From: Candidatus Woesearchaeota archaeon | GTDB taxonomy: Archaea > Nanobdellota > Nanobdellia > Woesearchaeales > UBA10200 | Reading direction: 5' to 3' | DNA: 39,553 nucleotides | Assembly (NCBI GenBank): GCA_018302185.1 | Contig: JAGVZX010000110.1 | Coordinates: forward strand, 1 to 39,553 | Part shown: piece by piece, positions 9,006 to 36,888 of the stretch | Position numbering within the stretch: position 1 is the first letter of the stretch | Layout of the letters: every line of letters begins with the position of its first letter | The notes under the pieces: generated by a model | Seen by the model: the letters and a program-made list of their open reading frames with translations, nothing else | What the model was told of the DNA's origin: nothing | The model's database searches: none | Program-made: the position numbers and the translations under genes

Positions 9006-9072
9006 TATGAGAAAATTAAAAAAGCATAAATCAGGATATTAAGTAAGAGAATCATATATAAAAAGTCCCACA

Positions 9073-9876: not shown

Positions 9877-9986
9877 TAATAGTCTTTTAGGCTATCTTTA
9901 ATAAACGCTTTAATCAACAAAAGCTTAAACTTATAAAAGCTCAAAATCGAATAGTTTATATAACAAATAATTATTCTTCTCTTGCA

Positions 9987-10361: not shown

Positions 10362-10373
10362 TTTGTAAAAAAC

Positions 10374-10514: not shown

Positions 10515-10530
10515 ATAGTGGGTGCTTATC

Positions 10531-10941: not shown

Positions 10942-10946
10942 TTAAA

Positions 10947-10954
10947 TTTATATA
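10947..10954 (+). promoter_or_regulatory. TATA-box-like element for serS
   Basis: tttatata lies 25-32 nt upstream of the ATG at 10979. Confidence 0.4.
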
Positions 10955-10978
10955 CTTCTATCTTAACTATTCTTTAAA

Positions 10979-12262: not shown

Positions 12263-12317
12263 ACATCTTTTGAAATTATACTTATATCTTACTTGCTAAT
12301 TTTTCTCTGCTTTTTAT

Positions 12318-13490: not shown

Positions 13491-13778
13491 TATACTCCTA
13501 AATCAATAAGAACTATATAAAGTTTACCACTAGAGAATAGTTATTTAATTTCTGATATTATGCACTGTATCTTGTTATTTCTAGCATCTTTTTCGATTTA
13601 TTTAAATATACTAAACTTAATTTCTGATAATAACCTATTTTAATCAGTTGATTTTTTACCAAAAGCATTTGTTAATGCATAATATTATCGTGAGGGGAGA
13701 AATATTTCAATAATCAAAGACATTTTAAGGAGCACTGAAACGCTTTTCAAGAATCCTGTTGTTCTTGATTATGATTAT

Positions 13779-14792: not shown

Positions 14793-15502
14793 GGCTTTGC
14801 CACAGTATTCCACAATAATTCAAAATATTTCCTGTAGCTGTCTGCAAGAGCTCGATTGTCAATTACAATCGCAGAAACCTCATCAGTAGATAACAAGATA
14901 ATAACAAGGCTTCCACATACATCAATCATCATCGGGCTCTGGTATTTGTCTGGCAGATACCTTGTATCATAGTCCTTTGCAACGCCTGTCTTTCTTGTGA
15001 ATTCATAGTATAATGCTTTTACTTTGCATTTGTTCGACTTCAATTCTTTAATAAATTTATCATGCCTGTGCTTAAGAAACTCTCTTGTTCTGCCAGAGCC
15101 ACCTATACCATAGATAGTTTCCTTTTGCGCCATCATCATGCTGTATGCAGTAGAAACACCATCTGGTCCGTGAAAATAATACACATGTTCTTTCTTTGGG
15201 TTTATGTTATAATCCAGCTTTAACTCAGGCAAAGCTTTTTCAACAAGATATTCTTTTTGCTTGATTATTTCTCTAAGGACATCAGGATTCACAACCTGGT
15301 ATGCTTTCTTCTTGTTTGCAATGATGCTGCTTACTAAGCCTTTTTCTGTCAATCTATCAAGGATATCATAGACATTTACCCTATGGACACCTGACTTCTT
15401 TGTTATCTCATTAACGTTTGCAGAGCCCAGCTTCAATAATGCAAGATATACTTTTGCTTCGTTGAATGTCAAGCCTGCTGCTAAGAGTGCTTCTTCTTTC
15501 AT
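14789..15502 (-). CDS. TrmB-family transcriptional regulator
   Basis: The N-terminal LTFNEAKVYLALLKLGSANVNEITKKSGVHRVNVYDILDRLTEKGLVS is the TrmB-type wHTH. The C-terminal part is a sensor-like domain. Confidence 0.8.
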   Translation of the reverse strand: MKEEALLAAGLTFNEAKVYLALLKLGSANVNEITKKSGVHRVNVYDILDRLTEKGLVSSIIANKKKAYQVVNPDVLREIIKQKEYLVEKALPELKLDYNINPKKEHVYYFHGPDGVSTAYSMMMAQKETIYGIGGSGRTREFLKHRHDKFIKELKSNKCKVKALYYEFTRKTGVAKDYDTRYLPDKYQSPMMIDVCGSLVIILLSTDEVSAIVIDNRALADSYRKYFELLWNTVAKP

Positions 15503-15633
15503 TGCAGAAATAGATAAGAGAGGCTATTATTTAAAGTTTATGTTTGTTGTAATACTTATTACTACACTAGTTAATATAGCGACGATAAATCACTCGATAG
15601 AAAGCGACAGGTTATAGCGTATCGGGGGCAAAC

Positions 15634-15777
15634 ATGCAGGAATTATATGAAGCAAGAGTTGAGCAGTTTAATGAGAAAGCGCACAAGAAGCAAAAAACAA
15701 ACCTAGATATGAAGATGATCGCTTACGCATGCCTATCATTTGTGGTGCTCTTGCTATTATTATCATTATTTGACTAA
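15634..15777 (+). CDS. Small (47 aa) protein with a C-terminal hydrophobic helix
   Basis: MQELYEARVEQFNEKAHKKQKTNLDMKMIAYACLSFVVLLLLLSLFD. It is ATG-initiated and absent from the ORF track. Confidence 0.3.
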   Translation: MQELYEARVEQFNEKAHKKQKTNLDMKMIAYACLSFVVLLLLLSLFD

Positions 15778-15810
15778 AAATTATTAAATAACCTTCATTT
15801 AACATCATTT

Positions 15811-15954
15811 ATGACAGAATTTGAAGATGCGGAAGCAGAAGAGATGCATGCACATTCAGACCATCACATAGATGCAAGCCCTGAATGGAAGTATTTCAAA
15901 TATGCAGTATATTTTATCATACTTTTAGTTGTGTTATATTATGTTTTGAAGTAA
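15811..15954 (+). CDS. Small (47 aa) protein with a His-rich N-terminus and a C-terminal hydrophobic helix
   Basis: MTEFEDAEAEEMHAHSDHHIDASPEWKYFKYAVYFIILLVVLYYVLK. It has the same length and layout as the preceding mini-ORF and ends 4 nt before the next gene. Confidence 0.3.
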   Translation: MTEFEDAEAEEMHAHSDHHIDASPEWKYFKYAVYFIILLVVLYYVLK

Positions 15955-15958
15955 ACAG

Positions 15959-17494
15959 GTGAGGCTATTGATAGTAACTAATAAACAGCATTCTAAGATT
16001 GATGTAGCTAGCATTCTAAAGAAAAAATACTATTTTCAGGGATTTAACGGCACTCCAGGATTGTTGACATTTGGTGCACCTTCTTCCTGCAAATACATGT
16101 ATGAGTATCTGGGCTATGGCTATAGTGTGCTTGTTGATTTCTATGAGAATGACAAAGCATATTACGGCTATGCCTGGGATGATTTGCATAATATAAACGA
16201 CCATCTGATGCAAAATCTGAAAAAGAATAAGGATTACCTAAAAGTTATCTGGCAGAAACACACTTCCATCAACAAAGAGCATTTTAATGTTCTGAAAAAG
16301 CTTGATAAGTTAGAGTTAAATAAAATAGGCAACATAGAGCTGCTTGAGGACTACCATATTCTTGCAGAAGCTCTTAACAAGCTTTTGGGCGTAAGTCACA
16401 TGGTTGAGGGCTTCACTCTCACAAGCGAAGAAAAGATAAGATCACTTATTTTTGATGCAGTAAAAAAAATGGGGAGAGAGAAAGAATACAATCAGCTGAT
16501 TGCAGATCTGACTGCATCTACATTTCCTTCATTCATAGGAGAAGCTCATAATGCAATTGTGCTTGCAGCAGTTGAATATACTAAGCATGGAAAAAAAATA
16601 GCTAAGCTGCTAAAGCAATTGGAAAAAAAATATTACTGGCTTAACAACGGCTATTCATGCACGCATTATCTTGATGCAGATTACTTTATGCATGAGATTA
16701 ATGAGCTGGTAAAGAAAGGCATCACAAAAGAGATGGAGAATTATGCCAAAAATTACCGAAAGATTTTGTATGAGAATAAAAAAAGAAAGCAACAGCTTTT
16801 CAAAGAACTAAAACTAAGCGATGAGCTAATCCAACTTCTGGAAATCAGCGATTTTATGGCAAAACTGCAGGACAACAGGAAGCATGTTACTACAATCACT
16901 CTGAGCTATATTGATAACTTTTTGGCTGAAATAAGCAAGAGATATAATTTAAAGCATGAGCTTGTTCGCTACCTTATCCAAGCAGAAGTAACAGAATTTA
17001 ACCTGAACAATCTTACTGATCAAATGCTTGAAGAAAGAAGAGCAAAGTCAATATTTTTCTATACTTATGAAAGCCAGAAAGAGAAAGAGCCTGAAAAAAG
17101 AGGCATTGTATTTACTGGTAGAAAAGCAGAGCAGATGATAACTCAATTGATGGATGAAGACCATGGCGAGATCCATGAACTCAAAGGAAACTGTGCATCT
17201 CCTGGAAAAGTTACTGCAATAGTTAAAGTCTGCAGAGGAGCAAATGAGATTGCAAAAGTGCAGAGAGGAGATATTTTAGTTGCGTGCATGACACAGCCAG
17301 AGTTTGTTCCTGCAATGAAAAAAGCAGCAGCGATAATCACAGACGAGGGCGGTCTTACCTGCCACGCGGCAATTGTCAGTCGTGAACTTGGGATTCCATG
17401 CCTAATAGGCACAAGAAAAGCAACTAAAGTCTTAAAGGATGGCATGAAGGTTGAAGTTGATGCTGACAATGGGGTTGTTAGGATATTGAGATGA
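15959..17494 (+). CDS. PEP-utiliser swivel (phosphohistidine) domain protein, family copy P1
   Basis: The C-terminus reads GNCASPGKVTAIVKV...GDILVACMTQPEFVPAMKKAAAIITDEGGLTCHAAIVSRELGIPCLIGT...DGMKVEVDADNGVVRIL, which is the PF00391-type mobile domain. The start is GTG. The helical N-domain is shared with P2-P5. Confidence 0.85.
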   Translation: MRLLIVTNKQHSKIDVASILKKKYYFQGFNGTPGLLTFGAPSSCKYMYEYLGYGYSVLVDFYENDKAYYGYAWDDLHNINDHLMQNLKKNKDYLKVIWQKHTSINKEHFNVLKKLDKLELNKIGNIELLEDYHILAEALNKLLGVSHMVEGFTLTSEEKIRSLIFDAVKKMGREKEYNQLIADLTASTFPSFIGEAHNAIVLAAVEYTKHGKKIAKLLKQLEKKYYWLNNGYSCTHYLDADYFMHEINELVKKGITKEMENYAKNYRKILYENKKRKQQLFKELKLSDELIQLLEISDFMAKLQDNRKHVTTITLSYIDNFLAEISKRYNLKHELVRYLIQAEVTEFNLNNLTDQMLEERRAKSIFFYTYESQKEKEPEKRGIVFTGRKAEQMITQLMDEDHGEIHELKGNCASPGKVTAIVKVCRGANEIAKVQRGDILVACMTQPEFVPAMKKAAAIITDEGGLTCHAAIVSRELGIPCLIGTRKATKVLKDGMKVEVDADNGVVRILR

Positions 17495-17544
17495 GATATA
17501 AATGTATTAGATAAACCTAATTATAAACTTACGAGGCTCTTGAA

Positions 17545-19044
17545 ATGAACAAAGAACTGATCCAATCATTAGTGAAAAAGGAGTGGTATATACAGGGCAT
17601 TGCAGCAGTTCCTGTCTTTGTTTTTGCGTGCTCGATCTCTGGTATAAAAGCATGCAAAAAAACTCTTGGTTATGGGTATTCTAAGTTTATCTATGACTTC
17701 CAGAAGGATTATCTTGAATTATACTACAGCAGAGAAGACCTTCAATATATGTGTGATGAGTTCATGAAATGGTACAAGAAAGATAAAAATTACTTGAACT
17801 GGCTTGATGAGAAGAGTAATGAGGAAAAAAAGCCATTCTTTGAGTATATGAAAGAGCACCTTAACAGCCTTTCCAGATTAGATGACAACACGCTTCTGGA
17901 GCATTACAAAAAATTCGCAAACATGTTCTATTTTGCTTTTGGCGCATCTCACTTAGTTGAGGGGATCTCACTTACGACTGATGTTGTGTTCAAGGATCTG
18001 CTGCTGAAATCCCTGCAAAAGCTAAGTAAAGCAGACAAGTTCACTCTCTACTTTACTGAGCTGACACAGCCTACACGAAAGATGTTTTTCCCAGAGTTTA
18101 ATAAGAGCATGTCTGATATGGTTGATTATTATAAAAAACATCAAAAACAAAATAACTACAAAGAACCATCACTCGAAGACAAAAAGCTACAAGCAATGGT
18201 TGATGCCCATGTCAAAAGATTTTTCTGGATAAGATCGCAGTGGGACAAGGCAAGAGAATATACTCAGCAAGATGTAATTGATGAGATCAAGGATGCAGTA
18301 GATAAGAACGAGCAGATAACTGTTACAACTGATGCGCAGCTTATGAAGAATCTTTTGCGTAAAAAGAAATTGTTTAAAGAGCTAAACCTAAACCAAGAAT
18401 TGATCGACTTGGTCGAGATCACTGATTTTGTGACTTATTGGCAGGACCAGAGAAAGATAGTTATCTTATCTGGTGTTTATGCTTTCCAGCAGTTTGTCGA
18501 TGAGATAGCCAAGCGTTTTAATGTTGATTCTCGCGACCTCAAATATCTGTTGGCAGATGAAGTTAATCCAGATGATATTGGCTCCATCAAAAACATCAAC
18601 CTCAGAGAAAGAAGGAAGGCAAGCATATTTATCCATTATAAAGATCAGTTAGAAGTATTTACAGGAAATAGATACAAAGAGATCAAAGCCTTGCTTGTAA
18701 AGCAGCATAAGGAAGATGATGTCAAAGAGCTTAATGGAATGTGCGCTTCATTAGGCTGTGTGACTGGCAGAGTTAAAGTCTGTATAAATGCAGCAGAAAT
18801 CTCTAAAGTTGAAAAAGGAGATATACTTGTCACTTCAATGACAAGGCCAGAATTTGTGCCTGCGATGAAAAAAGCAGCTGCAATTATTACAGACGAAGGT
18901 GGCATCACAAGCCATGCTGCAGTGATAAGTAGGGAGTTAAAGATACCATGCATCATCGGCACGAAGAATGCAACCAAGCGCCTCAAAGACGGAGATTTGG
19001 TTATGGTAAATGCAAATCATGGATTGGTAAGGATTCTGAAGTAA
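17545..19044 (+). CDS. PEP-utiliser swivel domain protein, family copy P2
   Basis: GMCASLGCVTGRVKV...GDILVTSMTRPEFVPAMKKAAAIITDEGGITSHAAVISRELKIPCIIGT...VNANHGLVRILK. It lies in tandem 50 nt after P1. Confidence 0.85.
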   Translation: MNKELIQSLVKKEWYIQGIAAVPVFVFACSISGIKACKKTLGYGYSKFIYDFQKDYLELYYSREDLQYMCDEFMKWYKKDKNYLNWLDEKSNEEKKPFFEYMKEHLNSLSRLDDNTLLEHYKKFANMFYFAFGASHLVEGISLTTDVVFKDLLLKSLQKLSKADKFTLYFTELTQPTRKMFFPEFNKSMSDMVDYYKKHQKQNNYKEPSLEDKKLQAMVDAHVKRFFWIRSQWDKAREYTQQDVIDEIKDAVDKNEQITVTTDAQLMKNLLRKKKLFKELNLNQELIDLVEITDFVTYWQDQRKIVILSGVYAFQQFVDEIAKRFNVDSRDLKYLLADEVNPDDIGSIKNINLRERRKASIFIHYKDQLEVFTGNRYKEIKALLVKQHKEDDVKELNGMCASLGCVTGRVKVCINAAEISKVEKGDILVTSMTRPEFVPAMKKAAAIITDEGGITSHAAVISRELKIPCIIGTKNATKRLKDGDLVMVNANHGLVRILK

Positions 19045-19084
19045 TTATAAAAATTTAAATATCTAATTCCAAGAATAATAAAAA

Positions 19085-21256
19085 CTAATGTGTTAGCTGA
19101 ACATATGATTCGGCAATGACTTTAGCAAGATCTTTCATATCAAACGATGCTTTTCTAAAGTTTACTCCAGTACCTCTTAGCTCTTTCATTGATGCCCTAT
19201 CAATTTGATTTACCCTGATCACTAAAGGAGTAACGCCAAAAGCTGCTGCTTCTTGCACAGCAGTAGCCATGTCAGCCCATGCATATCTTCCTTCATATTG
19301 CTGCTCCATATCCCATTTTTTTCTGTTTTCATCTGCAAGAATTTTTGATGTCGGATCAAATAATCGGTCATCATGCGGAGCGCCATCATTAAGATAAATC
19401 AAAAGCTTTATTTCTTCTGGACGAGATGAAAGCAGATATGTACCATGCCTGATTATTGCGCCATCCCTATTTTTGTACTGAGGCTCCAGCTGATTAAGCC
19501 TTTCACGCAGAGTTTCTCTTCCAAGAGAATCATCAAAACCCTTTAGTTTATAGAAAAAAGTAGTTCTTGATTTAATACCATAACCTTTTGAATGCTTACC
19601 TTCAACTTTGCTTGTGACAGCATAGATAGCACACGGATCATTGCAGACATCAAGTCCTACAGCAAAATACATCGTTGCTTCTTTTAATTTATCTAGCACA
19701 GAATGTTCTGGATCTATCAACTCACCTGTTGAATCGCTGACATCTATCAATAATAATGCTGCTACGCTTCGTTCCTCTCTTCTAGGCTCATAACAAAATA
19801 AAGGTCTGACAGGAGTATCTGCTTTGAGTTTGGCTAAAAATCTTGAATACTCCCTTTTATCCATCCTTCTTCCTGGCTTAGGCATTAACTTTCTTTTTAT
19901 TACGAGCCCTTCTGGACTAAGAGAATCAAATTGCGCTTTTATATTTCTCTCAATAGATTCTTCAGGCTCAGAAAAACCAAATACTGGCTGTTCTGGTTTT
20001 GGGATGTCTTTTTCATGTACTATTACATGCTGCTGCATAAACCTGCCTTGAATATAATTCCATTCATGATAACTAGGATCTCCAACTAAAGAAAGTTTTT
20101 TTCTGGTTGCTAATGCTATAGCTGCTTCTCTTTTATATATTACTCCTTTTTCATCCTTCATACTACGTGGATTAGATACATTATTTAAATTATCAAGAAC
20201 ATCTCGTATATTTCTTTCAACATCAGGCACAGATACATTCTGAGCAGGGTCAAGAATTGGCAGCTTGCTATCTAGCATTAGCTCAACTATCCTAAAATAA
20301 AGATCAACTGCTACTCTAACTGAATCATGGATATCTTTTTCAGATTCGAAAATCTTTCTGCTTATATTGAAGAGATCTTCTACAATCGGTTTAACTGCTT
20401 TTTCCCACTGTTCTAGCACAGCCGATCTTGAAGGATTATATTTTACTATATCTGCAAGAGATTTATGCCTTTCGTCTTCTTTTGACTGATATTTTCTGAA
20501 TTCATTGTCAAAATCCATAGACTGAAATAATAAAGAATATTCAAATCTTCGCATCACAAAATCAAATAAATAGGGTGATTGAAGTGTTGGTCTTGCACTG
20601 CATGATCTTTTTATGATATCTTTAGCTAAACAGTCATAAAAATAAGAAAGATTTCTTGAGCACCAGTCATATGAAGCTGGAAAATCCCTAAAAAAATTAC
20701 CCATTATCCTTCCTCTTTCTATAATCCCTATTAAATCACCCATAAGATTAAAGTGAAGAAAATAAGCTGCAAAATTGTATTTATATTTAATAGGTAATTC
20801 AATTTTAGAGAGCTCTGATTTTATTAAATCAAATTTAGGATATACATCTATCAGACCGGGTTCTGTTCCTTCTAATCCAGATAACAAATACGCTTGACAA
20901 TGATGTACCGGATTATGTTTTCCAAATCTTTCTTTGCCTTCTTTATATGCAGCTTTTACTATATCTGCAAGTGTTTTATTATTAAACCCTTTATTATAAC
21001 GAAACTGGGCTGCATTAAGCGCTGCAAGCGCAACATAAGTCATCTTATTATCTTCCCTATCCTCAAACACATTTATTTGCTCAGGAAAATTTGCTATAAT
21101 TGCTTTATCACGATCACGCGCATCACCAATTCCAAGTCCAGTATTGCCGTTGAAAAGAATTTCAATAGGTACTGTTGCTATTGCCCTCATATAAGCTCTA
21201 AGCAAACTATTTACTTCATCTATCCTAACTATTGGAGATTCAACAGCCATGCTCAT
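19085..21256 (-). CDS. NorD/CbbO/CobT-type von Willebrand factor A protein
   Basis: The C-terminal vWA has an intact MIDAS DVSDS (19730-19744). RDGAIIRHG, LLIYLNDGAPHD and YEGRYAWADMATAVQEAAAFG are family hallmarks. The YHEWNY motif lies upstream of the vWA. It is the last gene of the operon, 17 nt after the AAA+ gene. Confidence 0.8.
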   Translation of the reverse strand: MSMAVESPIVRIDEVNSLLRAYMRAIATVPIEILFNGNTGLGIGDARDRDKAIIANFPEQINVFEDREDNKMTYVALAALNAAQFRYNKGFNNKTLADIVKAAYKEGKERFGKHNPVHHCQAYLLSGLEGTEPGLIDVYPKFDLIKSELSKIELPIKYKYNFAAYFLHFNLMGDLIGIIERGRIMGNFFRDFPASYDWCSRNLSYFYDCLAKDIIKRSCSARPTLQSPYLFDFVMRRFEYSLLFQSMDFDNEFRKYQSKEDERHKSLADIVKYNPSRSAVLEQWEKAVKPIVEDLFNISRKIFESEKDIHDSVRVAVDLYFRIVELMLDSKLPILDPAQNVSVPDVERNIRDVLDNLNNVSNPRSMKDEKGVIYKREAAIALATRKKLSLVGDPSYHEWNYIQGRFMQQHVIVHEKDIPKPEQPVFGFSEPEESIERNIKAQFDSLSPEGLVIKRKLMPKPGRRMDKREYSRFLAKLKADTPVRPLFCYEPRREERSVAALLLIDVSDSTGELIDPEHSVLDKLKEATMYFAVGLDVCNDPCAIYAVTSKVEGKHSKGYGIKSRTTFFYKLKGFDDSLGRETLRERLNQLEPQYKNRDGAIIRHGTYLLSSRPEEIKLLIYLNDGAPHDDRLFDPTSKILADENRKKWDMEQQYEGRYAWADMATAVQEAAAFGVTPLVIRVNQIDRASMKELRGTGVNFRKASFDMKDLAKVIAESYVQLTH

Positions 21257-21273
21257 TTATCTCATCCCCTAAA

Positions 21274-22086
21274 TCATCCCCTAACATTTGTTTTTATTAA
21301 TTTATCTACAGCTTCAATTACAGTCTGATCATGCGATAGAACAACACTAATACATGCATGACAAGCTTCATAAGAGGGAGTACCTGAAACGATTTGCTGC
21401 GCTGCTTTAATTAAAGAATGATATCCAATCGATTCTTTTAGGCTTCCAGCATATTCTTGTGACCTATGCAGCTCATCTATAGTTTTAGCAAGCATATCCA
21501 ACTGCCTTGCCAATTTTAAGTCAATACCGCTTTCATTAACAATAATATCTACGCCTTGCTCACCCCTTACATAACTGAATTCTATGCCGACAAATCTTTG
21601 CGCTAAGCTTGGCTTTGGAAATCTTCTTGCTGCTTTTTGATAAGCTGCTCCTGGATTCATAGAGACAATAAACATAAAATCTTTGCCAGGCCTGATCACT
21701 TCGCCTATCTCTCCAACATGAAGTTCCCTTCTCCAATCTGCTAATGTATGGCATAACGGCAAAACATCTTCATTCATCTCTAATATCTCTTCTAAATGAG
21801 TATATGCTTGAATTTTTGCACCGATATACAATGGCCCTGGAATAAAAACACTTTCATATCCAGGAATTGTAATGCATGGCATTCCGTGCTGATATGCCAT
21901 AAAATCAACAAATCTAGATTTACCAGAGCCTGTTGGCCCTAACAGCATTACTGACTGTCCATTTTTCTTAGCATTCTCAAATATCTGCACTTCATTGCCA
22001 ACTGGATGATAAAATGGTTTTTTCTGTACTTTAAATTGCTCAACATATTTTGAGATATCTTTTTCATCAAATTCAATTTTTATCAT
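21274..22086 (-). CDS. CbbQ/NorQ/NirQ-type (MoxR-class) AAA+ ATPase
   Basis: PFYHPVGNEVQIFENAKKNGQSVMLLGPTGSGKSRFVDFMA carries Walker A at 21916-21939. SMNPG (sensor 1 context), LAQRF and the 270-aa length match the family. Walker B reads THLEE (21787-21798). Confidence 0.85.
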   Translation of the reverse strand: MIKIEFDEKDISKYVEQFKVQKKPFYHPVGNEVQIFENAKKNGQSVMLLGPTGSGKSRFVDFMAYQHGMPCITIPGYESVFIPGPLYIGAKIQAYTHLEEILEMNEDVLPLCHTLADWRRELHVGEIGEVIRPGKDFMFIVSMNPGAAYQKAARRFPKPSLAQRFVGIEFSYVRGEQGVDIIVNESGIDLKLARQLDMLAKTIDELHRSQEYAGSLKESIGYHSLIKAAQQIVSGTPSYEACHACISVVLSHDQTVIEAVDKLIKTNVRG

Positions 22087-22966
22087 TTGCGTTCACCATC
22101 TCATTCGCAACATCTTCGATTAGCAATGATTTAGCAACTTGCTGGACATAGAATTGGTCTGCACGGCCTTCTCTTGTAGTTAAGATTTTTTCAAGACCTA
22201 GCTTCATAGCTTTTTCAGCAGTCTCTTGTTGTTCAGCTCTCTTCTCACTAGCGCGCCTTCTTTCTTTCTTCTCTTGTTCAGGAGATAACTTAAAAAGCGC
22301 ATAAGTCTGATTAACAGACTCTTCCAGATGTATTCTTGGAATTTGCTCTTCAACAACAACAGCAACAATGCCTGGCCTTGGCAAGCCTGTCAACTTATCA
22401 TGAGGGACCTTTACCTCTAATCCAGAATGAATATATTCAAATTGATTATAGCTTGTTCCAGTAGGCTTTTTATCATAGATCACAATTCTCAATAGGTAGC
22501 CTATCTTAATTTCTTCTTTAGGCATTTCTTTTGTCTTGTCATCAAGAGGAAAAGTTATCGGCTCCTGTACTCCTGCAACTATACGTGCTCTAGATACATA
22601 ATCATCAACTTTATCTCTACCGTATATATGGCAAGCCTGGCTTATTGCAACTCTTGCATTATTAAATTTAGGATGATTTGGGTCTGCAGTATTATCTAGC
22701 AATACCTGGATCTGAGCAACTTTGTATAAGATAACTTCTTCATGTGAATCATATAATTCATCTGGGCTTCTTTCATCAAAATTATCAAGCTGACCAGAAT
22801 TTGGCGGCAAAATTCTTGAACCTGATTCAGTTAAATATCTTTTTTTTGCATCAGCTAATTCCTCTAACTTAAAGTTAATGCTGTAACTGGCTTCTGCTAT
22901 ATTCATTTTTTCTGTTTTAGGTTTTTCTTTCATTCTCTTCACCAATCCTATTTTTAAAAATTTCAC
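22073..22966 (-). CDS. Orphan protein (297 aa) in the AAA+/vWA operon
   Basis: The long ORF overlaps the AAA+ start by 14 nt. The track start is a GTG at 22966, with ATG alternatives at 22933 and 22906. It has a charged C-terminal helix (EQEKKERRRASEKRAEQQETAEKAMK). No family recognised. Confidence 0.7.
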   Translation of the reverse strand: MKFLKIGLVKRMKEKPKTEKMNIAEASYSINFKLEELADAKKRYLTESGSRILPPNSGQLDNFDERSPDELYDSHEEVILYKVAQIQVLLDNTADPNHPKFNNARVAISQACHIYGRDKVDDYVSRARIVAGVQEPITFPLDDKTKEMPKEEIKIGYLLRIVIYDKKPTGTSYNQFEYIHSGLEVKVPHDKLTGLPRPGIVAVVVEEQIPRIHLEESVNQTYALFKLSPEQEKKERRRASEKRAEQQETAEKAMKLGLEKILTTREGRADQFYVQQVAKSLLIEDVANEMVNANDKN

Positions 22967-22981
22967 CTCGTTAACATAATT

Positions 22982-24262
22982 TTAAGATTTCATTGTATTT
23001 TCAAGCTGAACTCTTCGTCTTCTTGCCAACTGAAACAAATAAGATGTAAATCTCTCTGCTGCAACAGCATCATGAGTTATAGCTGAGAAATGAGAATATC
23101 TGTGTTCGACTTCCTTGAGTGGCATCTGCACCAATAGATTATATGCTGTCCTGTAAGCTAGCCTTGCTCCATATTGAATGGCAGGATCATCATATTCTCC
23201 TTCAAGAGAATCCTCTCTAATCGGCAAGTACTCAGGCTGCTTTCTGCAGATATTCTTGGCATAGCTTTCAAAAAGATCAACAAACTTCAGGCTGATTGCC
23301 AGGCACATTCCGTTTTCTTTTTTGTTGTCTAGATCTTTTCTTAGGGCAATCCTTAGTTCATCAGGCGTTATAGGAAGATGCGGATCTGCAAAATGGATTA
23401 TTTTTTTTATTAGCTGTGCGTCCAAAGTTCCTCTTGTTGCTTTCAGCCATTTACTGCCTATTCTTTCACCTAATTCACTAATATATCCTAAAACATTATA
23501 GGTTGAATACGCTTTTTTTAATATCGGCAGGAAAATGCTTTCAGCATCTTCTGTATAGAGCCTTTGTTCGCGCTCAAGCCTCTTAAACTGCTGCAGGTAA
23601 TACTTCTCCTCATCTACCATCGCAGGTCTGCACTCATCATCCTCGCAAAATAATCTTGGGAATATTGCAGATGCATTGCCAGCGTTAACATAAGATCCGC
23701 TATCTTCTTTATCCTCCTCACTCAGGCACTCATTAAGTTTTTGTACAAGAAAGATATCAAATCCTATAGCTGTTCTAGAGCAGTCTAATCTGCTGCTTAA
23801 CTCTCTAACAAGATTGTCATTTTCTTTATCCTCTTCTTCACGCTCTTTCTGCCTATACTCTACTGCAAGAGTGACAAGGTCATCAATGCTATGCACTCCT
23901 ATTCTCGTTAATGGATTATAATCAAGAGGCTCAATATTGCGAATAGGCACTCCTTTCTCATAAATCAGCTGATTGACAAACCATATTGATGCTGCGTGCT
24001 CAGCAAGCATATCATTAACAACATTGTCATTAAGATGGGCTTTTAGCTTTTCATTAACATATTCGATCAGTTCAGTGTACTGCAATCTTTGATAGGCATG
24101 CTCTGCAGTGTGCAATCTCTTTTTAATCTCCATGTACCTAGCAAACCTTCTTGCCTGTACTGGATTTTCCCTAGCTAACTTCTCCAAAAATTCTTCGCTT
24201 CTTTTATTAGGTGCAAAAATTTCCATCTTACAGTACCCTTCCCTACATATGCCTATAGCCAT
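22982..24262 (-). CDS. Orphan protein (426 aa), first gene of the AAA+/vWA operon
   Basis: The long ORF is divergent from the Lrp regulator. It has an acidic central linker (REEEDKENDN, SEEDKEDSGS). No family recognised. Confidence 0.7.
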   Translation of the reverse strand: MAIGICREGYCKMEIFAPNKRSEEFLEKLARENPVQARRFARYMEIKKRLHTAEHAYQRLQYTELIEYVNEKLKAHLNDNVVNDMLAEHAASIWFVNQLIYEKGVPIRNIEPLDYNPLTRIGVHSIDDLVTLAVEYRQKEREEEDKENDNLVRELSSRLDCSRTAIGFDIFLVQKLNECLSEEDKEDSGSYVNAGNASAIFPRLFCEDDECRPAMVDEEKYYLQQFKRLEREQRLYTEDAESIFLPILKKAYSTYNVLGYISELGERIGSKWLKATRGTLDAQLIKKIIHFADPHLPITPDELRIALRKDLDNKKENGMCLAISLKFVDLFESYAKNICRKQPEYLPIREDSLEGEYDDPAIQYGARLAYRTAYNLLVQMPLKEVEHRYSHFSAITHDAVAAERFTSYLFQLARRRRVQLENTMKS

Positions 24263-24325
24263 ACGCCTTAACAGTAGATAGAATATTTAGAATTAATTAG
24301 TAATTTTTCTAAAAAACCCGTAAAA

Positions 24326-24335
24326 TTTATAAATA
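24326..24335 (+). promoter_or_regulatory. TATA-box-like element for the tandem-Lrp gene
   Basis: tttataaata lies 21-30 nt upstream of the ATG at 24356. Confidence 0.45.
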
Positions 24336-24355
24336 AACCTAGTTTATTATGCACT

Positions 24356-25474
24356 ATGGGTGAAAAAAATAAAGAATTGATAGATTCAGTAAGATCACCA
24401 GGCCAGATAATTGCGCCTAAGCAGCCTAAAACTGTCAAATTAGACATTATAGACAGGAGAATAATCTACGTGTTATTGGTAAATTCGCGGCTTAGCGCAA
24501 CAAAGATCGCTAAGCTTCTTGGCATCCCAAAAGAAAAAGTGATGTACAGGATAAATAGGCTTGTTGAAGAAAAAGTGATTGTAGAGTTTTATACAGCTAT
24601 TAACACAACAAGGCTTGGATATGATCTTTTTATGCTCAATATTAGCTTAAAAAACACAAGCCAGCAGGAATTAAAGAACTTAGTTGTTGAAATGCAGAAG
24701 ATGCACTATGTTAATTGGGTTATGACTTCTTTTGGAAGCTGGGATCTCATGACAATGATCCAGGCAAAAGGGCTAGGGCATCTGGACAAAATATTAGATG
24801 AAGTATTCACTTGCATAGGAAGCAAATTAAGGGATTATAGTATCTTCTCGATTGTAGATTTCCAGCACACAACCCCGCGCTATCTTACGCTTGACATCAA
24901 AATGCCTCAAATAAAACTTATCGGGAAAAGAGATTTTTCGTATTTTAAGGAGCTAGAAGAAAGAAATGCCAAAGAGGCAAGCCAAAAGATAAGCCTTGAT
25001 AACATAGATGTTGAGCTGTTGAATTCAATTGCATCTAACTCCAGAAAATCATTAAAAGAGATCGGAGAAGAAATTGGAATATCAAGTGATGCAGCTAATT
25101 ACAGGCTTAGAAAATTAATAATGCAAGATCTCATAACAGGATTCAAGGTGCGCCTAAATCATTATTTATTCGGCTATCAGTTTCAGTTCGTGTTCGTAAA
25201 AATCCCTTACATGTCTGATGATAAAAAAAAGCAATTTGTTTATTTCTGTAAAAACCATCATCTAATAAATGCAGTGTTCAAGCTCATAGGCCAGTGGAAC
25301 TTTGCATTTGAGGTTTTCAGCAAGGATGTAATGGAGCTAAAGATGTTTGAAGCAGAGCTAACTGAACTCTTTGGCGACATAATCCAGAACATAACGCTGT
25401 CCTTGGAGTTCAACCAGTACAAGTTTACTTATCTTGGAGAGGGAATTTATACTGACTTAAAAAAGAGTGTCTAG
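24356..25474 (+). CDS. Tandem (double) Lrp/AsnC-family transcriptional regulator
   Basis: Two HTH_AsnC-like units are present: IDRRIIYVLLVNSRLSATKIAKLLGIPKEKVMYRINRLVEEKVI and IDVELLNSIASNSRKSLKEIGEEIGISSDAANYRLRKLIMQDLI. Each is followed by a RAM-like segment. Confidence 0.8.
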   Translation: MGEKNKELIDSVRSPGQIIAPKQPKTVKLDIIDRRIIYVLLVNSRLSATKIAKLLGIPKEKVMYRINRLVEEKVIVEFYTAINTTRLGYDLFMLNISLKNTSQQELKNLVVEMQKMHYVNWVMTSFGSWDLMTMIQAKGLGHLDKILDEVFTCIGSKLRDYSIFSIVDFQHTTPRYLTLDIKMPQIKLIGKRDFSYFKELEERNAKEASQKISLDNIDVELLNSIASNSRKSLKEIGEEIGISSDAANYRLRKLIMQDLITGFKVRLNHYLFGYQFQFVFVKIPYMSDDKKKQFVYFCKNHHLINAVFKLIGQWNFAFEVFSKDVMELKMFEAELTELFGDIIQNITLSLEFNQYKFTYLGEGIYTDLKKSV

Positions 25475-25558
25475 CATATTAGCTTTTATCTATTTATGTT
25501 CGTCAAAATTTGGCAGTTGCTGAAACTTTTGTCGTTATATCTAAACAAATCTTTTTAT

Positions 25559-28459
25559 CTATTTGTTCCCAAATCTAGTATCAACTACTCTAGTCAAGTC
25601 AATGCCTTCTCTTTTGCGCTCTTCAATGTATTTTTTTACATCTATCTTGTAGGCTGTCCTGACTCCACTTAATGGTCCAACTCCCATGTCAAACACTGCT
25701 TTCTCAATGCCCTCATCTAGCTCATCATGTGGAGAATTAACTCCGGTATATCTGATGCTGCTATCAAACCTAGGCTTTGCAGTCTGGATAGACCAGTATT
25801 GCTCTCCAGCTCCAAACTGCTCTTGGACCAGCTCATTGTCCCCTTCAATCTGCTCAAACACAAAATCACCATGTGTCATTGAGGTATTTGCCTTATTTGT
25901 TAGCAGCTTTTCTAACAATTCTGTCTTGAATTTTCTTGGGGCATTTCCTCTGCCTCCCTGGTATCTAACAAGTATATGCTCAGCTTTATCATATCCTTCA
26001 TCGCCATTATAAATTATTCTACCATCTTTGTGCTTAACAGGCATTCCATTCTCATCCCTTACTCTCAGGTCAATATCATCTATCATCAAATATTCTGCAT
26101 TTACTTGGTGAGCACTTTTCACTAATGTATCAAGTACATACCTAAATGTGCCTTTTTCACCAAGTGCAGCCATAAGCGCATGATTTGCCTCATAAGGGCT
26201 TATTGCAAGCACTGCATTTTTGCCTTCTGACCTGCCTAACTTTAATATTGAAAATCCCATCGGCGAATCTAATCCTTGTATAAAATGCTCAAGGTATAAC
26301 CCAGATGGATTGTATATGCTCTTAAAGGTTATTCCCTGTTTTTCTCCGCCTAAACTTGCGCAGCACATCATAAAGCTGCTGCTGTGAAAATCTTGGACAA
26401 CTGCACGATGCCAAGCCCTGGTATAAACGCTTCCTCCTACAAGCGCGCCATTAAATCTTAATTGGGTCTCTAAAAGCTCTAGTTTAGTGGCTAATTCAAC
26501 TATTGGTACATCTAACTTGCTCTTGTTTTGGGCCCATCTCAGATTTTCAACTATGGTGCAGTATGCTTTTAATTCTTCAACAAGATCAAAGGCTTTCTCT
26601 ATGCCTAATGTCTCAGCACTGTATCTGCTTATCCTCTCTTTTACTACCTTTCCAACATTAATCGGCTTTCCAATGTCCTTTGCAGCTCTAGCTACTCTAG
26701 CATCTTCATCAGTTACTAAATTTCCAATTCCGCCTGTTTCTTGAAAATGTTGAATTCTAGAGTTATGTATCTCAAGTTCAAGCTGCTTTCTGCCTTCATC
26801 AGATTCCAAGAGAGTCTCATCTATCGACATCAAGACCTTTCCAATAGCCTGGCCCCTATAAAGAGCATCTTTTGTCTCATCGCCTAAAATTGGCGCAGCT
26901 CCAGGAGCTTTAGGAGGCATGCTCACAGGCTTTAGCAAGTCAAATAATGCATTATATTTCTCTCCTCTAATGTCAGCAAGGATATCATTTAATGTTGTTA
27001 TCCAGGATACAGCATCACCATTGCTTCTTGTGTTAATGTCATATGTTGATTGGTTAGCTAGCAACAGTTGTGTATTAAATCCTAATCTGCTTATATTTGA
27101 CATAAGCTCTTGCGCTTTCTGAATATGCACAGGTGTCTTTTCTTGGCCAATACTTGGTGGTTCAAGGTAAGAGCGAAAAGTTCCATAGTCAAAAGCAATT
27201 CCTAAAATCCTGTTTAGCCCAGAAGAGTTTCTTTGTGCAACAGGAATCTCTTGCATCTCGCTAAGAGTCCGAAACATGCCTATAGGCGAATACCCTGCGC
27301 CAATAAGGATATTTAGGATTGCAGGATTCAATGGCTTAAGGCGTGCGCTTCCGCACTGGTCCGCTAGATAAGCCAGCTTATCATACAACAGCCAATGTAA
27401 TCCTTTCTTAGGGTTATCAATAATATTACCTAATATGATCTCAGACAATGGAACATTTTTTCTAAGCTCCTGCTTAACTAACAAAGCTCCAACATGCACC
27501 CAATCTAGTTGAGAATATATGTTGCGCTTAGAAGATGGCAGCTCCATAACTCTACAAACATAGTCAAAAAATACTCTTGTATTTGCAGGAGATGCCTGCA
27601 GCTCATACACTGCTTCTATGATATCTTTTAATTGGGCTTCTACTTTCTGGTCTCCTTTTAATTTCTTAGCTTGTCTTCTATCTTCTGCAGCTTGATCAAA
27701 CATGTTAAGAATAACTTCGGCTGGCACTTCTATCCCTGTAGCTTGTCTTAAACTCGTTTCATAAGTTGGAATTGCAGCAGCGTCAAAATGCCTAAACGGG
27801 TCTCTGACCATATTCCTATTTAATAATCCACGTGACTCTTTGGCAAATTCTTCATACTTAAATAAAGGTTCTAATTTTGCTAGAAGTAAGTATTGGTAAA
27901 AACTTTGATTTAAAATATCTCTAAGGTCTTTTATCTGCTTTACTTTCTGGAAGTCAACTGCTGTTCTTAAGATAGCCTCACCTCTAAGCTGGATTGCTGT
28001 TTCTTCATCTGCGCCAGAGCTTGTTATTGCTCTGTGGATTCCAGACAACTCATCAAATTCCCTACTTTGGTTTTGTCCAAAATACTTAGCAGCCTCTTCC
28101 CATTCACCATCTCGCACTTCTAAATCAGATATAGGGATTAAGCCTGCTTTAATGTAATCACCTACTATCTCTTTAAAAAAATCATAATGCTCATACTCCA
28201 TTTTATCAACATCTGTCTCTAAAAGCAAAGTTACTAGAGCTGGCTTATCTTCGCTAGCAACTACTCTTAAATCTAAATAAGTGCCTGAATCTAAAACAGT
28301 TTCTTGCGTATGGCCATCTTCATTACTAACAGTAATAACTGCACCGCTAGAAAATTGGCCTGATCTCTTCCCACCAAGAGAAAAGTCACGAAATACTTTT
28401 CTAAGAGTTTCCTCTAGATTAAACCCTTGCTCAGCTTTAAAATGTGCAAATAATACCAT
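25559..28459 (-). CDS. Orphan large protein (966 aa)
   Basis: An uninterrupted 2.9-kb ORF whose antisense ORFs are all short. A TATA-like box sits about 30 nt upstream of its ATG. No P-loop, TM segment or family motif recognised. Confidence 0.8.
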   Translation of the reverse strand: MVLFAHFKAEQGFNLEETLRKVFRDFSLGGKRSGQFSSGAVITVSNEDGHTQETVLDSGTYLDLRVVASEDKPALVTLLLETDVDKMEYEHYDFFKEIVGDYIKAGLIPISDLEVRDGEWEEAAKYFGQNQSREFDELSGIHRAITSSGADEETAIQLRGEAILRTAVDFQKVKQIKDLRDILNQSFYQYLLLAKLEPLFKYEEFAKESRGLLNRNMVRDPFRHFDAAAIPTYETSLRQATGIEVPAEVILNMFDQAAEDRRQAKKLKGDQKVEAQLKDIIEAVYELQASPANTRVFFDYVCRVMELPSSKRNIYSQLDWVHVGALLVKQELRKNVPLSEIILGNIIDNPKKGLHWLLYDKLAYLADQCGSARLKPLNPAILNILIGAGYSPIGMFRTLSEMQEIPVAQRNSSGLNRILGIAFDYGTFRSYLEPPSIGQEKTPVHIQKAQELMSNISRLGFNTQLLLANQSTYDINTRSNGDAVSWITTLNDILADIRGEKYNALFDLLKPVSMPPKAPGAAPILGDETKDALYRGQAIGKVLMSIDETLLESDEGRKQLELEIHNSRIQHFQETGGIGNLVTDEDARVARAAKDIGKPINVGKVVKERISRYSAETLGIEKAFDLVEELKAYCTIVENLRWAQNKSKLDVPIVELATKLELLETQLRFNGALVGGSVYTRAWHRAVVQDFHSSSFMMCCASLGGEKQGITFKSIYNPSGLYLEHFIQGLDSPMGFSILKLGRSEGKNAVLAISPYEANHALMAALGEKGTFRYVLDTLVKSAHQVNAEYLMIDDIDLRVRDENGMPVKHKDGRIIYNGDEGYDKAEHILVRYQGGRGNAPRKFKTELLEKLLTNKANTSMTHGDFVFEQIEGDNELVQEQFGAGEQYWSIQTAKPRFDSSIRYTGVNSPHDELDEGIEKAVFDMGVGPLSGVRTAYKIDVKKYIEERKREGIDLTRVVDTRFGNK

Positions 28460-28485
28460 TTTATCCTCAAAAAAAACCTCTGTCG

Positions 28486-28493
28486 TATTTAAA
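28486..28493 (-). promoter_or_regulatory. TATA-box-like element for the 966-aa gene
   Basis: tatttaaa on the plus strand (tttaaata on the coding strand) lies 27-34 nt upstream of the ATG at 28459. Confidence 0.4.
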
Positions 28494-28727
28494 TTTTCCT
28501 ATATTTTACTATCCTTAAGTAATAACTTATTTAACACCAATTTTTTCAGAAACTAAACACCTTATCTAGGAATATTTTATGAATAAGAGCTAATATTATT
28601 AGTGTTATTTATATCTAACTTCTTATTTTTATAAAAAAGACGTAAAAATATAATAAATAATATGGTTTTTTTATAAATAAATAGGTAAAAAATAGAATAT
28701 AAGAAAAGCAGAAAACTCAAGAAAAGG

Positions 28728-28822
28728 TGTATCATCAGCACAAAGATCCTCACCAAAGTGCTTAAAGACGGAGATTTGTCATGGTAAATGCAAATCATGG
28801 CATTGTGAAGATATTGAAGTAA
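28728..28822 (+). pseudogene. Relic 3' end of a PEP-utiliser swivel domain gene (closest to P2)
   Basis: It reads CIISTKILTKVLKDGDL, then has a 1-nt deletion, then MVNANHGIVKILK and a stop. The corresponding P2 sequence at 18949-19044 is CIIGTKNATKRLKDGDLVMVNANHGLVRILK and a stop. A core of about 38 nt is almost identical. No upstream coding sequence remains, only an AT-rich tract. Confidence 0.8.
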
Positions 28823-28844
28823 TAATATTATTCTCTGAGAATAA

Positions 28845-29174
28845 CTAATTATTTACAACTATCACTTTTTTCTTTGTGGCACTTACCATCGCTTGCCTAA
28901 TCAAAGTTGCTTCCAGCTCTAAAATTTTCTTAACAACAGGGCTTTCTGCATTTAATGTGTAAAGCCTTGTCTTGCCAAACCTTCTTGTTTCTCTTACTAA
29001 TCCGTTTTTTTCCAATTGCTCCCAATAATTAAATACAGATGCTCTGGAGATTTCAGCGCCTTTTTCTATATCGGTTTTTGTAAAATCTAATCCTTTATTC
29101 TCTACAAGAAAATCTATGATTTTAAATAAGGGCATTTCTCCGGTTAATTGCAATAATAATGATTTGTCTTTCAT
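28845..29174 (-). CDS. Winged-helix DNA-binding protein (paralog of 32550-32894)
   Basis: LFKIIDFLVENKGLDFTKTDIEKGAEISRASVFNYWEQLEKNGLVRETRRFGKTRLYTLN has an HTH-plus-wing pattern. I prefer the ATG at 29174. A TATA-like gatttatatac lies about 30 nt upstream. Confidence 0.7.
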   Translation of the reverse strand: MKDKSLLLQLTGEMPLFKIIDFLVENKGLDFTKTDIEKGAEISRASVFNYWEQLEKNGLVRETRRFGKTRLYTLNAESPVVKKILELEATLIRQAMVSATKKKVIVVNN

Positions 29175-29285
29175 ACATTGAGAAAATATAGAAAAGTATA
29201 TAAATCTTACGGTCAAAGTACATCTATATAGACTTTAGAAAATTTAACTTTTTGAGGATTGTTAAGAAGAGAGGATGTTTAGGCA

Positions 29286-29552
29286 ATGTGGACAGATGAT
29301 GAGATTAAAGGCAAAATATTGCATAAGTTAACTCGTTTTGGGAAATTTGATGCTAGCCATACTGCTATTGAGCATCTGCAAAAGGGATTTCCTAAAGATA
29401 TGGTCGGTAGAGTTAAAGATTTAATAAGAGAATTAAAGAAAGAAAATATACTATTTATCAAGCATACTAGTTATGGTGAGCAAGTTTCAATAAATCTAGA
29501 TGTAATAGATAAAGTTATGTTTTATATTGATGTTTTTTTAAAGAAGCCATAG
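29286..29552 (+). CDS. Small conserved hypothetical protein (88 aa; paralog of 32999-33268)
   Basis: It shares the pattern G..H(T).....HL.KG.P......V.....EL.K..IL..K.T.GEQ.S(L/I)N with the 33-kb copy. It is divergent from the wHTH gene. Confidence 0.6.
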   Translation: MWTDDEIKGKILHKLTRFGKFDASHTAIEHLQKGFPKDMVGRVKDLIRELKKENILFIKHTSYGEQVSINLDVIDKVMFYIDVFLKKP

Positions 29553-29617
29553 TTACATTATATTTTGATGAAGGTGAGACAATTACTTACGTCGAATATA
29601 TCCGCGAATACATCTCT

Positions 29618-35681: not shown

Positions 35682-35720
35682 TTTTCCCCTTACATTTCAA
35701 TTTTCATTTGTAAGGGGAAA
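35682..35720 (+). repeat. 39-nt hairpin repeat, copy 1 (12-bp perfect stem tttccccttaca / tgtaaggggaaa)
   Basis: ttttccccttacatttcaattttcatttgtaaggggaaa, read directly. It lies 44 nt after the upstream stop and abuts the Fic TATA box. Confidence 0.9.
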
Positions 35721-35754: not shown

Positions 35755-36768
35755 ATGGTATACATTCATGTAAAGAAAGTAGGGGATAAAAAATACTATA
35801 CTTTGCGAGTTTCAGCTAGAGATAAGGCTGGAAAAATCATAACAAAGGACATTGAAAATCTTGGTTCAGATATCAGCAAGATTAATATTGAAACTCTTGA
35901 GAAAAAATACAAGAAAGAGATAAGGGAATCCTATAAGACAATAAAGCAATTTCTTGAATCAAATTATTATATTGAGAAGATAAAGAAGCAGAAGTTAAGG
36001 AAAGATGACTTTTTTGAAATAAGCACCTCAACTGAGATAGAAGCCATAAAGCTGCACTTTAAAGAAAAGTTTCTTAAATTAGATAAGGCAACCCAAAATG
36101 ACATCTATAAACTATTCCTGATAAAATTTGCTGTCAGCAGCACATCTATCGAGGGAAATACCATCACTTTGAAGCAAGCTGCCAAGCTTTTGACAGAAAA
36201 TATCATGCCAAAAGGAAAAACTGCTAGAGAAGTATATGACCTGCAGAATACGCAGGCTGTTTTTTTCGAGCTGCTGGAGGCAATGCCTGAAATTGCTTTA
36301 GACATGATTGAAGAGACGCATGATAAGCTGCTTGATAAGATTGACCTAAGAAAAGGCTATCGTACACATGACATACATATCTTAGGTCAGCCATTTAAGC
36401 CAAGCCCTGCAAGATATGTTAAGGCAGATATGAAGCTATTGTTGGATTGGTATAATAAAAATGAGAAGAGCATGCATCCGTTAGCATTAGCTATCTTTTT
36501 CCATCATAAATTTGAAAGCATACACCCATTTTCAGACGGCAATGGGAGAACAGGAAGAGTATTGATGAATCTTATCCTGATTAAGCATAAATATCCACCA
36601 TTAATTGTTCCAATGACAAAGCGTGAAGAATATTTGCAAGCAATGAATGATGCAGATAAAGCTCGAGAGAAAAGCTTGCTCGGAACAAATATTGCAGATT
36701 ATCACAAATTGTTTGACTTTATTATCAATGAATATAGGAAGACATACTGGAATACTTTCCTGGTATGA
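35755..36768 (+). CDS. Fic-domain protein (AMPylase-type), class II layout
   Basis: The canonical Fic motif HPFSDGNGRTGR (HxFx[D/E]GNGRxxR) is present. The motif STSIEG, matching the (S/T)xxxE(G/N) inhibitory helix, lies N-terminal to it. Confidence 0.9.
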   Translation: MVYIHVKKVGDKKYYTLRVSARDKAGKIITKDIENLGSDISKINIETLEKKYKKEIRESYKTIKQFLESNYYIEKIKKQKLRKDDFFEISTSTEIEAIKLHFKEKFLKLDKATQNDIYKLFLIKFAVSSTSIEGNTITLKQAAKLLTENIMPKGKTAREVYDLQNTQAVFFELLEAMPEIALDMIEETHDKLLDKIDLRKGYRTHDIHILGQPFKPSPARYVKADMKLLLDWYNKNEKSMHPLALAIFFHHKFESIHPFSDGNGRTGRVLMNLILIKHKYPPLIVPMTKREEYLQAMNDADKAREKSLLGTNIADYHKLFDFIINEYRKTYWNTFLV

Positions 36769-36849: not shown

Positions 36850-36888
36850 TTTTCCCCTTACATTTCAATTTCTATTTGTAAGGGGAAA
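36850..36888 (+). repeat. 39-nt hairpin repeat, copy 2
   Basis: ttttccccttacatttcaatttctatttgtaaggggaaa. It is identical to copy 1 except for a tc/ct swap in the loop. Confidence 0.9.

Follow-up and report, generated by a model that had tools for sequence, protein, structure and literature searches.

A displaced P2-type gene end as the probable scar of an AAA+ island insertion in a Woesearchaeota contig

Why should the end of an intact gene recur, decayed, almost 10 kb downstream of that gene? This question arises in a 39,553-nt contig of a Candidatus Woesearchaeota archaeon, hereafter called the window. It harbours P1, P2, P3 and P4, genes for proteins of ~480-510 residues ending in a PEP-utiliser swivel domain (PF00391). 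A degenerate copy of the 3' end of the kinase-like gene P2, which we call the relic, lies at the far edge of a six-gene island that starts just after P2. A sequence-only reading of the window had viewed this copy as a possible insertion or recombination scar at the P2 3' end, with the stub of a deleted sixth paralog as the other option. The former view is supported by island-free relatives, by a collinear gene end in two related contigs (L135/L137) and by the anomalous end of P2 itself. On sequence comparisons, the relic is probably the native end of P2, pushed 9.8 kb downstream by a strain-specific island that brought a substitute end with it.

The repeat and the island between its copies

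The features of the locus are as follows. Coordinates are those of the window, and positions in gene ends are counted backwards from the last nucleotide of the stop codon (-1).

17545-18948, + strand: body of P2, native, with 92% nucleotide identity to the L081 orthologue (1290/1404)
18949-19044, + strand: present 3' terminus of P2 (last 96 nt), with a substitution cluster, most likely imported
19045-19067, + strand: AT-rich stretch of 23 nt after the P2 stop, containing a TTTAAATA motif
19085-21256, - strand: island gene, 723 aa, partner of the AAA+ protein; its similarity to vWA is faint, with a sub-threshold Pfam match
21274-22086, - strand: island gene, CbbQ/NorQ-type AAA+ ATPase (PF07728, PF08406)
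22073-22966, - strand: island gene, 297 aa, no assigned function, accompanying the AAA+ pair in other DPANN contigs
22982-24262, - strand: island gene, 426 aa, orphan
24356-25474, + strand: island gene, regulator with two AsnC/Lrp-type HTH domains
25559-28459, - strand: island gene, 966 aa, orphan, with homologues for its C-terminal 370 aa only
28460-28704, no strand: AT-rich tract 5' of the 966-aa gene, right-hand end of the insert, with no P2-like or relative-like sequence
28705-28822, + strand: the relic, a probably displaced and decaying P2-type 3' terminus (-118 to -1) with a TAA stop
28823-29552, no strand: native right flank, made up of a 22-nt spacer, the wHTH gene and the 88-aa gene
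28845-29174/29216, - strand: wHTH gene of the native right flank
29286-29552, + strand: 88-aa gene of the native right flank

Pairwise alignment agrees with the original observation that positions 28728-28822 are a copy of the last 96 nt of P2 (18949-19044), stop codon included. The 95 nt first assigned to the relic do match, but its left limit did not hold, as homology to the P2-type ends of relatives reaches ~20 nt further left. The relic therefore spans ~116-118 nt, with a left edge at ~28705-28707. Compared with window P2, it matches at 23/36 positions in its left segment, at 36/37 in a core that also carries a 1-nt deletion, and at 15/22 in its right segment. The near-identical core and the frame-breaking deletion, located after 28774, had both been described correctly. 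The relic translates as CIISTKILTKVLKDGDL up to the deletion, and then as VMVNANHGIVKILK followed by the stop. Besides the deletion it has seven private substitutions, and all eight relic-specific changes fall within its left 54 nt (chance ~0.01).

The similarity is specific to P2, with an alignment score of 94 for the relic region against the P2 3' end and scores of 22, 38 and 33 against those of P1, P3 and P4, respectively. Shuffled versions of the 385-nt intergenic region (n = 500) score 21.6 ± 2.8, with a maximum of 36, which places the relic ~25 standard deviations above them, and the best of 160 other window segments reaches 31 against the P2 end. The two copies are direct repeats that bracket the six-gene island and its AT-rich tract (19045-28727), as the sequence-only reading had it, and their spacing is 9778-9779 nt. 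Upstream of the relic no more P2-like coding sequence was found by tblastn, in line with the claim that nothing coding is left there; the AT-rich tract ends at 28704 and not at 28727.

One might ask whether the repeat is genomic at all, given that the region is AT-rich and was obtained by metagenome assembly. We found no positive support for a chance similarity or an assembly chimera. The alignment score speaks against the former, the relic is identical letter for letter in an independent ENA assembly (L002), and contigs assembled separately from sequencing runs X1 and X2 cross both junctions (18241-20806, 28010-29215). A contig of a further run, X6 (18894-19115), crosses the left junction. 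The runs that hold the window strain are labelled groundwater or soil metagenomes. We consider this explanation refuted, its residual probability being negligible.

As for a function, no ORF is present in the relic, and neither an Rfam family nor a terminator-like site was detected in it or close by. Nor is there a tRNA in or near the relic or anywhere else in the 39.5-kb window. It is most likely a non-functional scar, with no detectable function of its own.

The genes of the island tell more about its nature. Homologues of the 723-aa protein, with 26-53% identity, adjoin AAA+ genes in four other contigs (L127, L128, L130 and L131) according to tblastn; a word-based search with this protein matched nothing but itself. 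The core made up of the AAA+, 723-aa and 297-aa genes is found elsewhere in DPANN contigs, at 26-54% identity, in unrelated contexts beside MazE/PemK or AbiEii genes. Given this recurrence, the trio behaves as portable cargo. In the other DPANN contigs examined, the AAA+ modules are never located beside swivel-domain genes. For the 966-aa protein, 1.8 billion representatives yielded 16 distant homologues, restricted to its C-terminal 370 residues, and no Pfam domain was recognized; an AlphaFold model of this conserved part, with a pLDDT of 46, was unusable.

The composition and codon use of the island show no clear anomaly relative to the rest of the window. Its six proteins include no integrase, transposase or resolvase in searches of Pfam (with E values up to 1 for the orphans), PHROGs and PADLOC; four of these proteins are uncharacterized. 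No recombinase was found among the other scanned ORFs of the 39.5-kb window in Pfam or PHROGs, and no inverted repeat links the two ends of the insert. On a separate note, the AAA+ gene has ~42 additional nucleotides at 21847-21856 in L002 and in a contig of run X2, where it codes for 287 residues versus 270 in the window. The window copy may have lost sequence immediately ahead of the Walker B region, through either a true deletion or a collapse during assembly.

Gene ends in the window and in its relatives

Close relatives were collected through protein searches and exact look-ups, and the nearest named ones are Candidatus Woesearchaeota MAGs, which belong to DPANN. A scan of genome contigs revealed no close relative, its best match being 40% identical, and a metagenome scan added only a duplicate of L081. 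The closest relative is L081/L084, whose aligned blocks share ~89% nucleotide identity with the window. Island genes are absent from all related contigs examined (L081/L084, L082, L083, L134, L136 and L135/L137), and the island proteins had no tblastn match in L081, L082 or L083. Synteny between the window and L081 extends from 8481 to 19044, where it breaks off precisely at the P2 stop codon, and it restarts at 29586, before P3.

The right flank of the relic is conserved, lying beside a P2-type end in L135/L137 and beside a gene called X, described below, in L083, L134 and L136. L135 and L137 are Logan contigs from the 90% cluster of the wHTH protein, identical over their overlap, and they provide the uninterrupted site that an insertion leads one to look for. 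There, an intact gene with a P2-type end and a P1-type body lies 23 nt from the wHTH stop. Positions 28707-29554 of the window are collinear, without a break, with the end of that gene, the spacer, the wHTH gene and the 88-aa gene (81.1% identity over 852 nt). This unbroken collinearity makes the relic the positional equivalent of the terminal ~116-118 nt of a gene that is intact in an island-free strain.

The last 96 nt of the L135/L137 gene are 88% identical to those of L082 P2, versus 63-73% for P3-type ends and 58-67% for P1-, P4-, P5- and P6-type ends. The amino acid sequence of its body is 75-76% identical to P1 orthologues and 55-57% identical to P2. Judging from these identities, the gene is presumably a hybrid of a P1 body and a P2 end that arose by recombination in the conserved swivel region. 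In the same contigs, the wHTH/88-aa module is directly followed by an LbH gene, and P3, P4 and the second wHTH module of the window are missing, an arrangement that points to recombination both among paralogs and from one wHTH module to the other. In none of the relatives, the L135/L137 contigs being short, was a full-length paralog found to separate P2 from the wHTH gene, and no relative examined represents the exact pre-insertion state.

If the relic occupies the place of a native gene end, the end that P2 carries today calls for an explanation. The P2 ORF is intact, its PF00391 match covers positions 2-72 of 72, and its orthologues share 94% (L081, identical to L084), 86% (L083) and 81% (L082) amino acid identity with it. 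When the gene was divided into 96-nt bins, window-specific substitutions amounted to 15/64 in the last bin and to 1-5 in each of the 15 others. This clustering sets in at -97/-94, which is also where the relic starts to align well (-96). Outside the conserved core, the last 96 nt match L081 at 42/58 positions (72%; binomial p = 1e-5 relative to the body). The other three lineages have no such terminal cluster, and this segment is 83-90% identical among them, better than the gene bodies.

The relic shows the opposite behaviour. It matches the P2 ends of L081, L082 and L083 at 84, 83 and 79 of 95 positions, respectively, and that of the window's own P2 at 74. Over its last 22 nt, it is identical to the orthologous ends at 20-21 positions, versus 15 for window P2. 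Wherever the relic and the present P2 end differ, one of the two has the orthologue consensus. Between -116 and -97, the relic resembles L083 and L137, and window P2 resembles L081.

Because the relic is nearer to orthologous P2 ends and the present P2 end is anomalous, we consider the relic most likely to be the displaced native end. The present P2 end would then be the foreign one, and these comparisons suggest that it is most likely element-derived and arrived with the island. A single end-swapping event would account for both the anomalous P2 end and the consensus-type relic. The imported type of end finishes with GGATTGGTAAGGATTCTGAAGTAA, after which comes TTATAAAAATTTAAATATCTAAT. The 23-nt AT-rich stretch that follows P2 (19045-19067) probably opens the imported segment; we take its TTTAAATA motif to be an archaeal TATA-box-like element. 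No donor of the imported end was matched among the sequences examined. P1, P3 and P4 were rejected as sources for a gene conversion of the P2 end, their identity to it being only 13-14/22.

How the native end may have been displaced

In the ancestral state, P2 would have been directly followed by the wHTH gene. A segment of ~9.76 kb, most simply circular, would have entered P2 through one reciprocal crossover of the Campbell type, located ~97-116 nt ahead of the gene's stop. Besides the six-gene island and its AT-rich tract, this donor would have carried a diverged P2-type end of ~116 nt and the 23-nt AT-rich stretch. The imported end would complete P2, leaving the gene intact, and the native end would be moved to the far side of the insert. 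Deprived of a start and of selection, the displaced end could then have gained its 1-nt deletion and ~7 substitutions. The two ends would thus represent the left and right junction repeats of the island, attL-like and attR-like, respectively.

We infer both that the donor was circular and that the crossover lay near -97. The exchange point would fall between ~-116 and -88, and the pattern of sites, few of which are informative, puts the switch near -97 and not in the 38-nt core. A crossover inside that core could be envisaged instead, given that the relic-specific changes are confined to the left and given the pattern between -116 and -97. It would, however, leave unexplained nine window-specific changes of P2 between -94 and -58. 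Regarding the enzyme, a site-specific recombinase that worked in trans or has since disappeared and the homologous recombination of the host seem about equally likely; the latter must be active in this lineage, since the P1/P2 hybrid exists. With a divergence of 0.21 at four-fold sites between the window and L081, the insertion would date, very roughly, to halfway back to the split of these two lineages.

Recombination between the repeats would excise the island, and intact P2 would be restored only by a crossover located 3' of the relic's deletion and thus within the last 45 nt. No in-register joint, which would skip 9778-9779 nt, was found in the contigs of seven runs, bearing in mind that assembler contigs drop rare variants. 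The sides of the joints listed in run contigs are short (19-30 nt) and their offsets wrong, and these joints come from other organisms or from paralogs.

Two other histories could leave a P2-type end on the far side of the island. The relic might be the stub of an additional P2-like paralog, P2*, in an ancestral order P2, P2*, wHTH, with all but the last ~116 nt of P2* replaced by the island through illegitimate recombination or deletion. This is in keeping with the varying number and order of paralogs among relatives and with the hybrid gene of L135/L137, and between -116 and -97 the relic is indeed unlike window P2 and like more distant lineages. The contigs with the uninterrupted site are also too short to reveal a separate P2 upstream. 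Nevertheless, in the relatives examined P2 is not separated from the wHTH gene or gene X by any full-length paralog. A stub would moreover leave unexplained why the anomaly of the P2 end starts at -97, the left limit of the 96-nt repeat, and why the relic is 83-88% identical to true P2 orthologue ends versus 77% to the end of the L135/L137 gene. We consider such an origin unlikely.

The alternative is the import of linear DNA from a related genome in which the island already lay 3' of the P2 homologue. The left join would have formed by homologous recombination inside P2 and the right one illegitimately, by chance ~116 nt before the native stop. Such homology-facilitated illegitimate recombination involves neither a circular intermediate nor a site-specific enzyme, and it accounts for an imported P2 end together with a retained native end without an integrase. 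The P1/P2 hybrid attests to recombination inside swivel-domain genes in this lineage, and the host-like composition of the island is what a related donor would produce. However, the P2 anomaly starts at -97, no more than ~20 nt from where the relic begins (~-116 to -118) and level with the beginning of the well-aligned part of the relic (-96), and two independent joins would not be expected so close to each other. Furthermore, no donor arrangement was found, related AAA+ modules never being located beside swivel-domain genes. This scenario appears quite improbable to us. Target duplication by a transposon or insertion sequence was rejected outright: the repeat, of 96-118 nt, is a gene end and is accompanied by neither terminal inverted repeats nor a transposase, where a duplication of 2-15 bp would be expected.

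The insertion of an element that replaces the gene end thus appears the most probable reading, and it has precedents. Escherichia coli K-12 has its e14 element in icd, with an icdC fragment, a case reported by Hill, Gray and Brody in 1989 and summarized in PMC13626634. The e14 prophage lies between icd and icdC, a displaced C-terminal fragment, with the present icd extending into the element (PMC13626634). Loss of e14 recombines icd and icdC into a chimeric icd (PMC13626634). As in our case, the element occupies the 3' part of a protein-coding gene, that gene extends into the element and stays functional, a homologous C-terminal pseudogene fragment lies at the far end, and the two ends are imperfect direct repeats. 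Unlike the island, in which no recombinase was detected and for which no excision was observed, e14 has its own integrase and is excised upon SOS induction. The target also differs, as P2 is one member of a multi-copy paralog family of a DPANN archaeon, and so does the cargo, an AAA+ chaperone-like module versus a prophage.

Islands at the 3' ends of tRNA and tmRNA genes are similar in other respects. Their repeats correspond to the 3' part of the target, for which the element supplies a replacement; they are strain-specific, and accessory or conflict-type cargo gathers at one hotspot. They differ in that the target here is protein-coding, with no tRNA in the window and no integrase gene next to a junction. 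Campbell-type homologous insertion duplicates the shared segment on both sides without requiring a recombinase of the element, and it fits the paralog recombination evident in these genomes from the P1/P2 hybrid; its crossover would be expected in the 38-nt core, whereas the pattern observed here lies near the left edge of the homology. Like the relic, stubs of decayed tandem paralogs are short, frameshifted 3' fragments with no upstream coding sequence. In their case, however, the neighbouring gene would not have an exchanged end as P2 does, nor would the fragment be collinear with an intact end in an island-free relative. Altogether, the locus combines repeats at both ends of the insert, its absence in relatives and an apparently element-derived gene end, features of gene-end-replacing elements; the integrase or recombinase gene that such an element would carry was not found inside it.

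The P2-P3 interval and its cargo

The interval between P2 and P3 was found in seven configurations across the relatives, listed below with strands in brackets where relevant.

Window: island, relic, wHTH gene (-), 88-aa gene (+)
L081: 145-aa gene and NTP_transf_2 gene (11642-12671)
L082: Fic gene (-) and 174-aa gene X
L083: broken X, wHTH gene (-), 89-aa gene
L134: Fic gene, X, wHTH gene, 88-aa gene
L136: X, wHTH gene, 88-aa gene
L135/L137, equivalent position: hybrid of a P1 body and a P2 end, abutting the wHTH gene

Given this variety, we consider the interval to be a recombination hotspot. Three of the synteny breaks between genomes coincide precisely with the stop codon of an end that is P2-type or P2-like, that of gene X included. 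The number and order of paralogs vary as well, with three tandem paralogs before the variable region in L082 and no P4 in L083 and L135.

Gene X codes for 174 residues of no known family (L082, 12573-13097; L134, 2131-2655), and it is broken into 85- and 71-aa parts in L083 (2708-3193). In three lineages it sits where the parent gene of the relic would be. Its last ~25-35 nt, encoding GIIKILK before the stop, are similar to P2 ends (17/22 and 15/22). From this similarity, gene X may have captured an older displaced P2-type end. In addition, window positions 19037-19067, which comprise the last 8 nt of P2 and the 23-nt flank, are identical (31/31) to the end and flank of gene X in L082 (13090-13120), and the genomes that share this unit are otherwise ~76-84% identical. 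The TTTAAATA box of the shared flank is located ~25 nt before P3 in L082 and faces no gene in the window.

At this hotspot, direct repeats also enclose a second cargo gene, the Fic gene of L082. On either side of it lies one copy of a 50-nt hairpin element (TACCCCTACA…TGTAGGGGTA; 11505-11554 and 12479-12528), which is present in single copy in L083 (~2613-2664) and in L081 (~12708-12763). The window has its own Fic gene further downstream (35755-36768, + strand), between 39-nt hairpin repeats that are 95% identical (35682-35720 and 36850-36888). The Fic genes of L081 and L083 occupy the equivalent place in the opposite orientation, and the window Fic cassette may be invertible or mobile. At its left edge, the window harbours a HEPN gene (785-1318, - strand) and a nucleotidyltransferase gene (201-788, - strand). 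This pair and the pair formed by the 145-aa and NTP_transf_2 genes in L081 represent toxin-antitoxin-like cargo. Elsewhere in the window, the seryl-tRNA synthetase gene (10979-12262) has an in-frame stop at 11735-11737. L001, a near-identical assembly with three clustered base differences (11696, 11715 and 11736), codes for an intact 427-aa enzyme, and the stop is either a strain variant or an assembly error.

We also scanned 126 loci for orphan ends of swivel-domain genes, which flagged L099, L003 and L041; the last of these, from a Candidatus Falkowbacteria contig, was retained as a lead only. In L041, a 26-codon swivel-domain end lies 1.85 kb 3' of a full-length family member (2087-2167 and 4009-4089). 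It is ~80% identical to the end of the full gene, with a core matching at 35/37 positions and the same codons as in the window. NYN and PPDK_N (ATP-binding domain) genes separate the two copies, and the PPDK_N ORF stops where the fragment starts, in another frame, which is why L041 was given no more weight than that of a lead. The L003 candidate is an internal fragment, and L099 was rejected as a frameshifted full gene. This family member (5-1556) is frameshifted ~45 codons before its end, with an ORF (5-1498) whose continuation to 1556 is in a different frame, and it represents either a pseudogene or a sequencing error.

The cargo types recorded at the P2-P3 interval are the AAA+ island, Fic, the nucleotidyltransferase pair and gene X. 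It is conceivable, albeit rather doubtful at present, that the conserved 3' end of swivel-domain genes serves more generally among DPANN, and perhaps CPR, as a portable landing or exchange site for conflict-type cargo devoid of its own integrase. The seven configurations, the breaks at P2-type or P2-like stops, the P2-like end of gene X, the shared 31-nt unit and the geometry of L041 would all fit such a role.

For the organism, the relic sets the limits of the AAA+ island, from ~18949 to 28705, and delineates it as one discrete acquired unit. The island should accordingly be read as cargo and not as a functional partner of the flanking swivel-domain genes. P2 of the window strain would be a chimera, the last 32 codons of which are foreign. 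To our knowledge, mobile elements and integrases are poorly known in DPANN. The scar is of an ordinary, already known type, and the locus provides comparative evidence for a gene-end-replacing insertion in a DPANN archaeon. The likely significance of the relic itself is that of a recombination substrate, and the P2-P3 hotspot offers a place to study paralog recombination and cargo turnover in natural populations.
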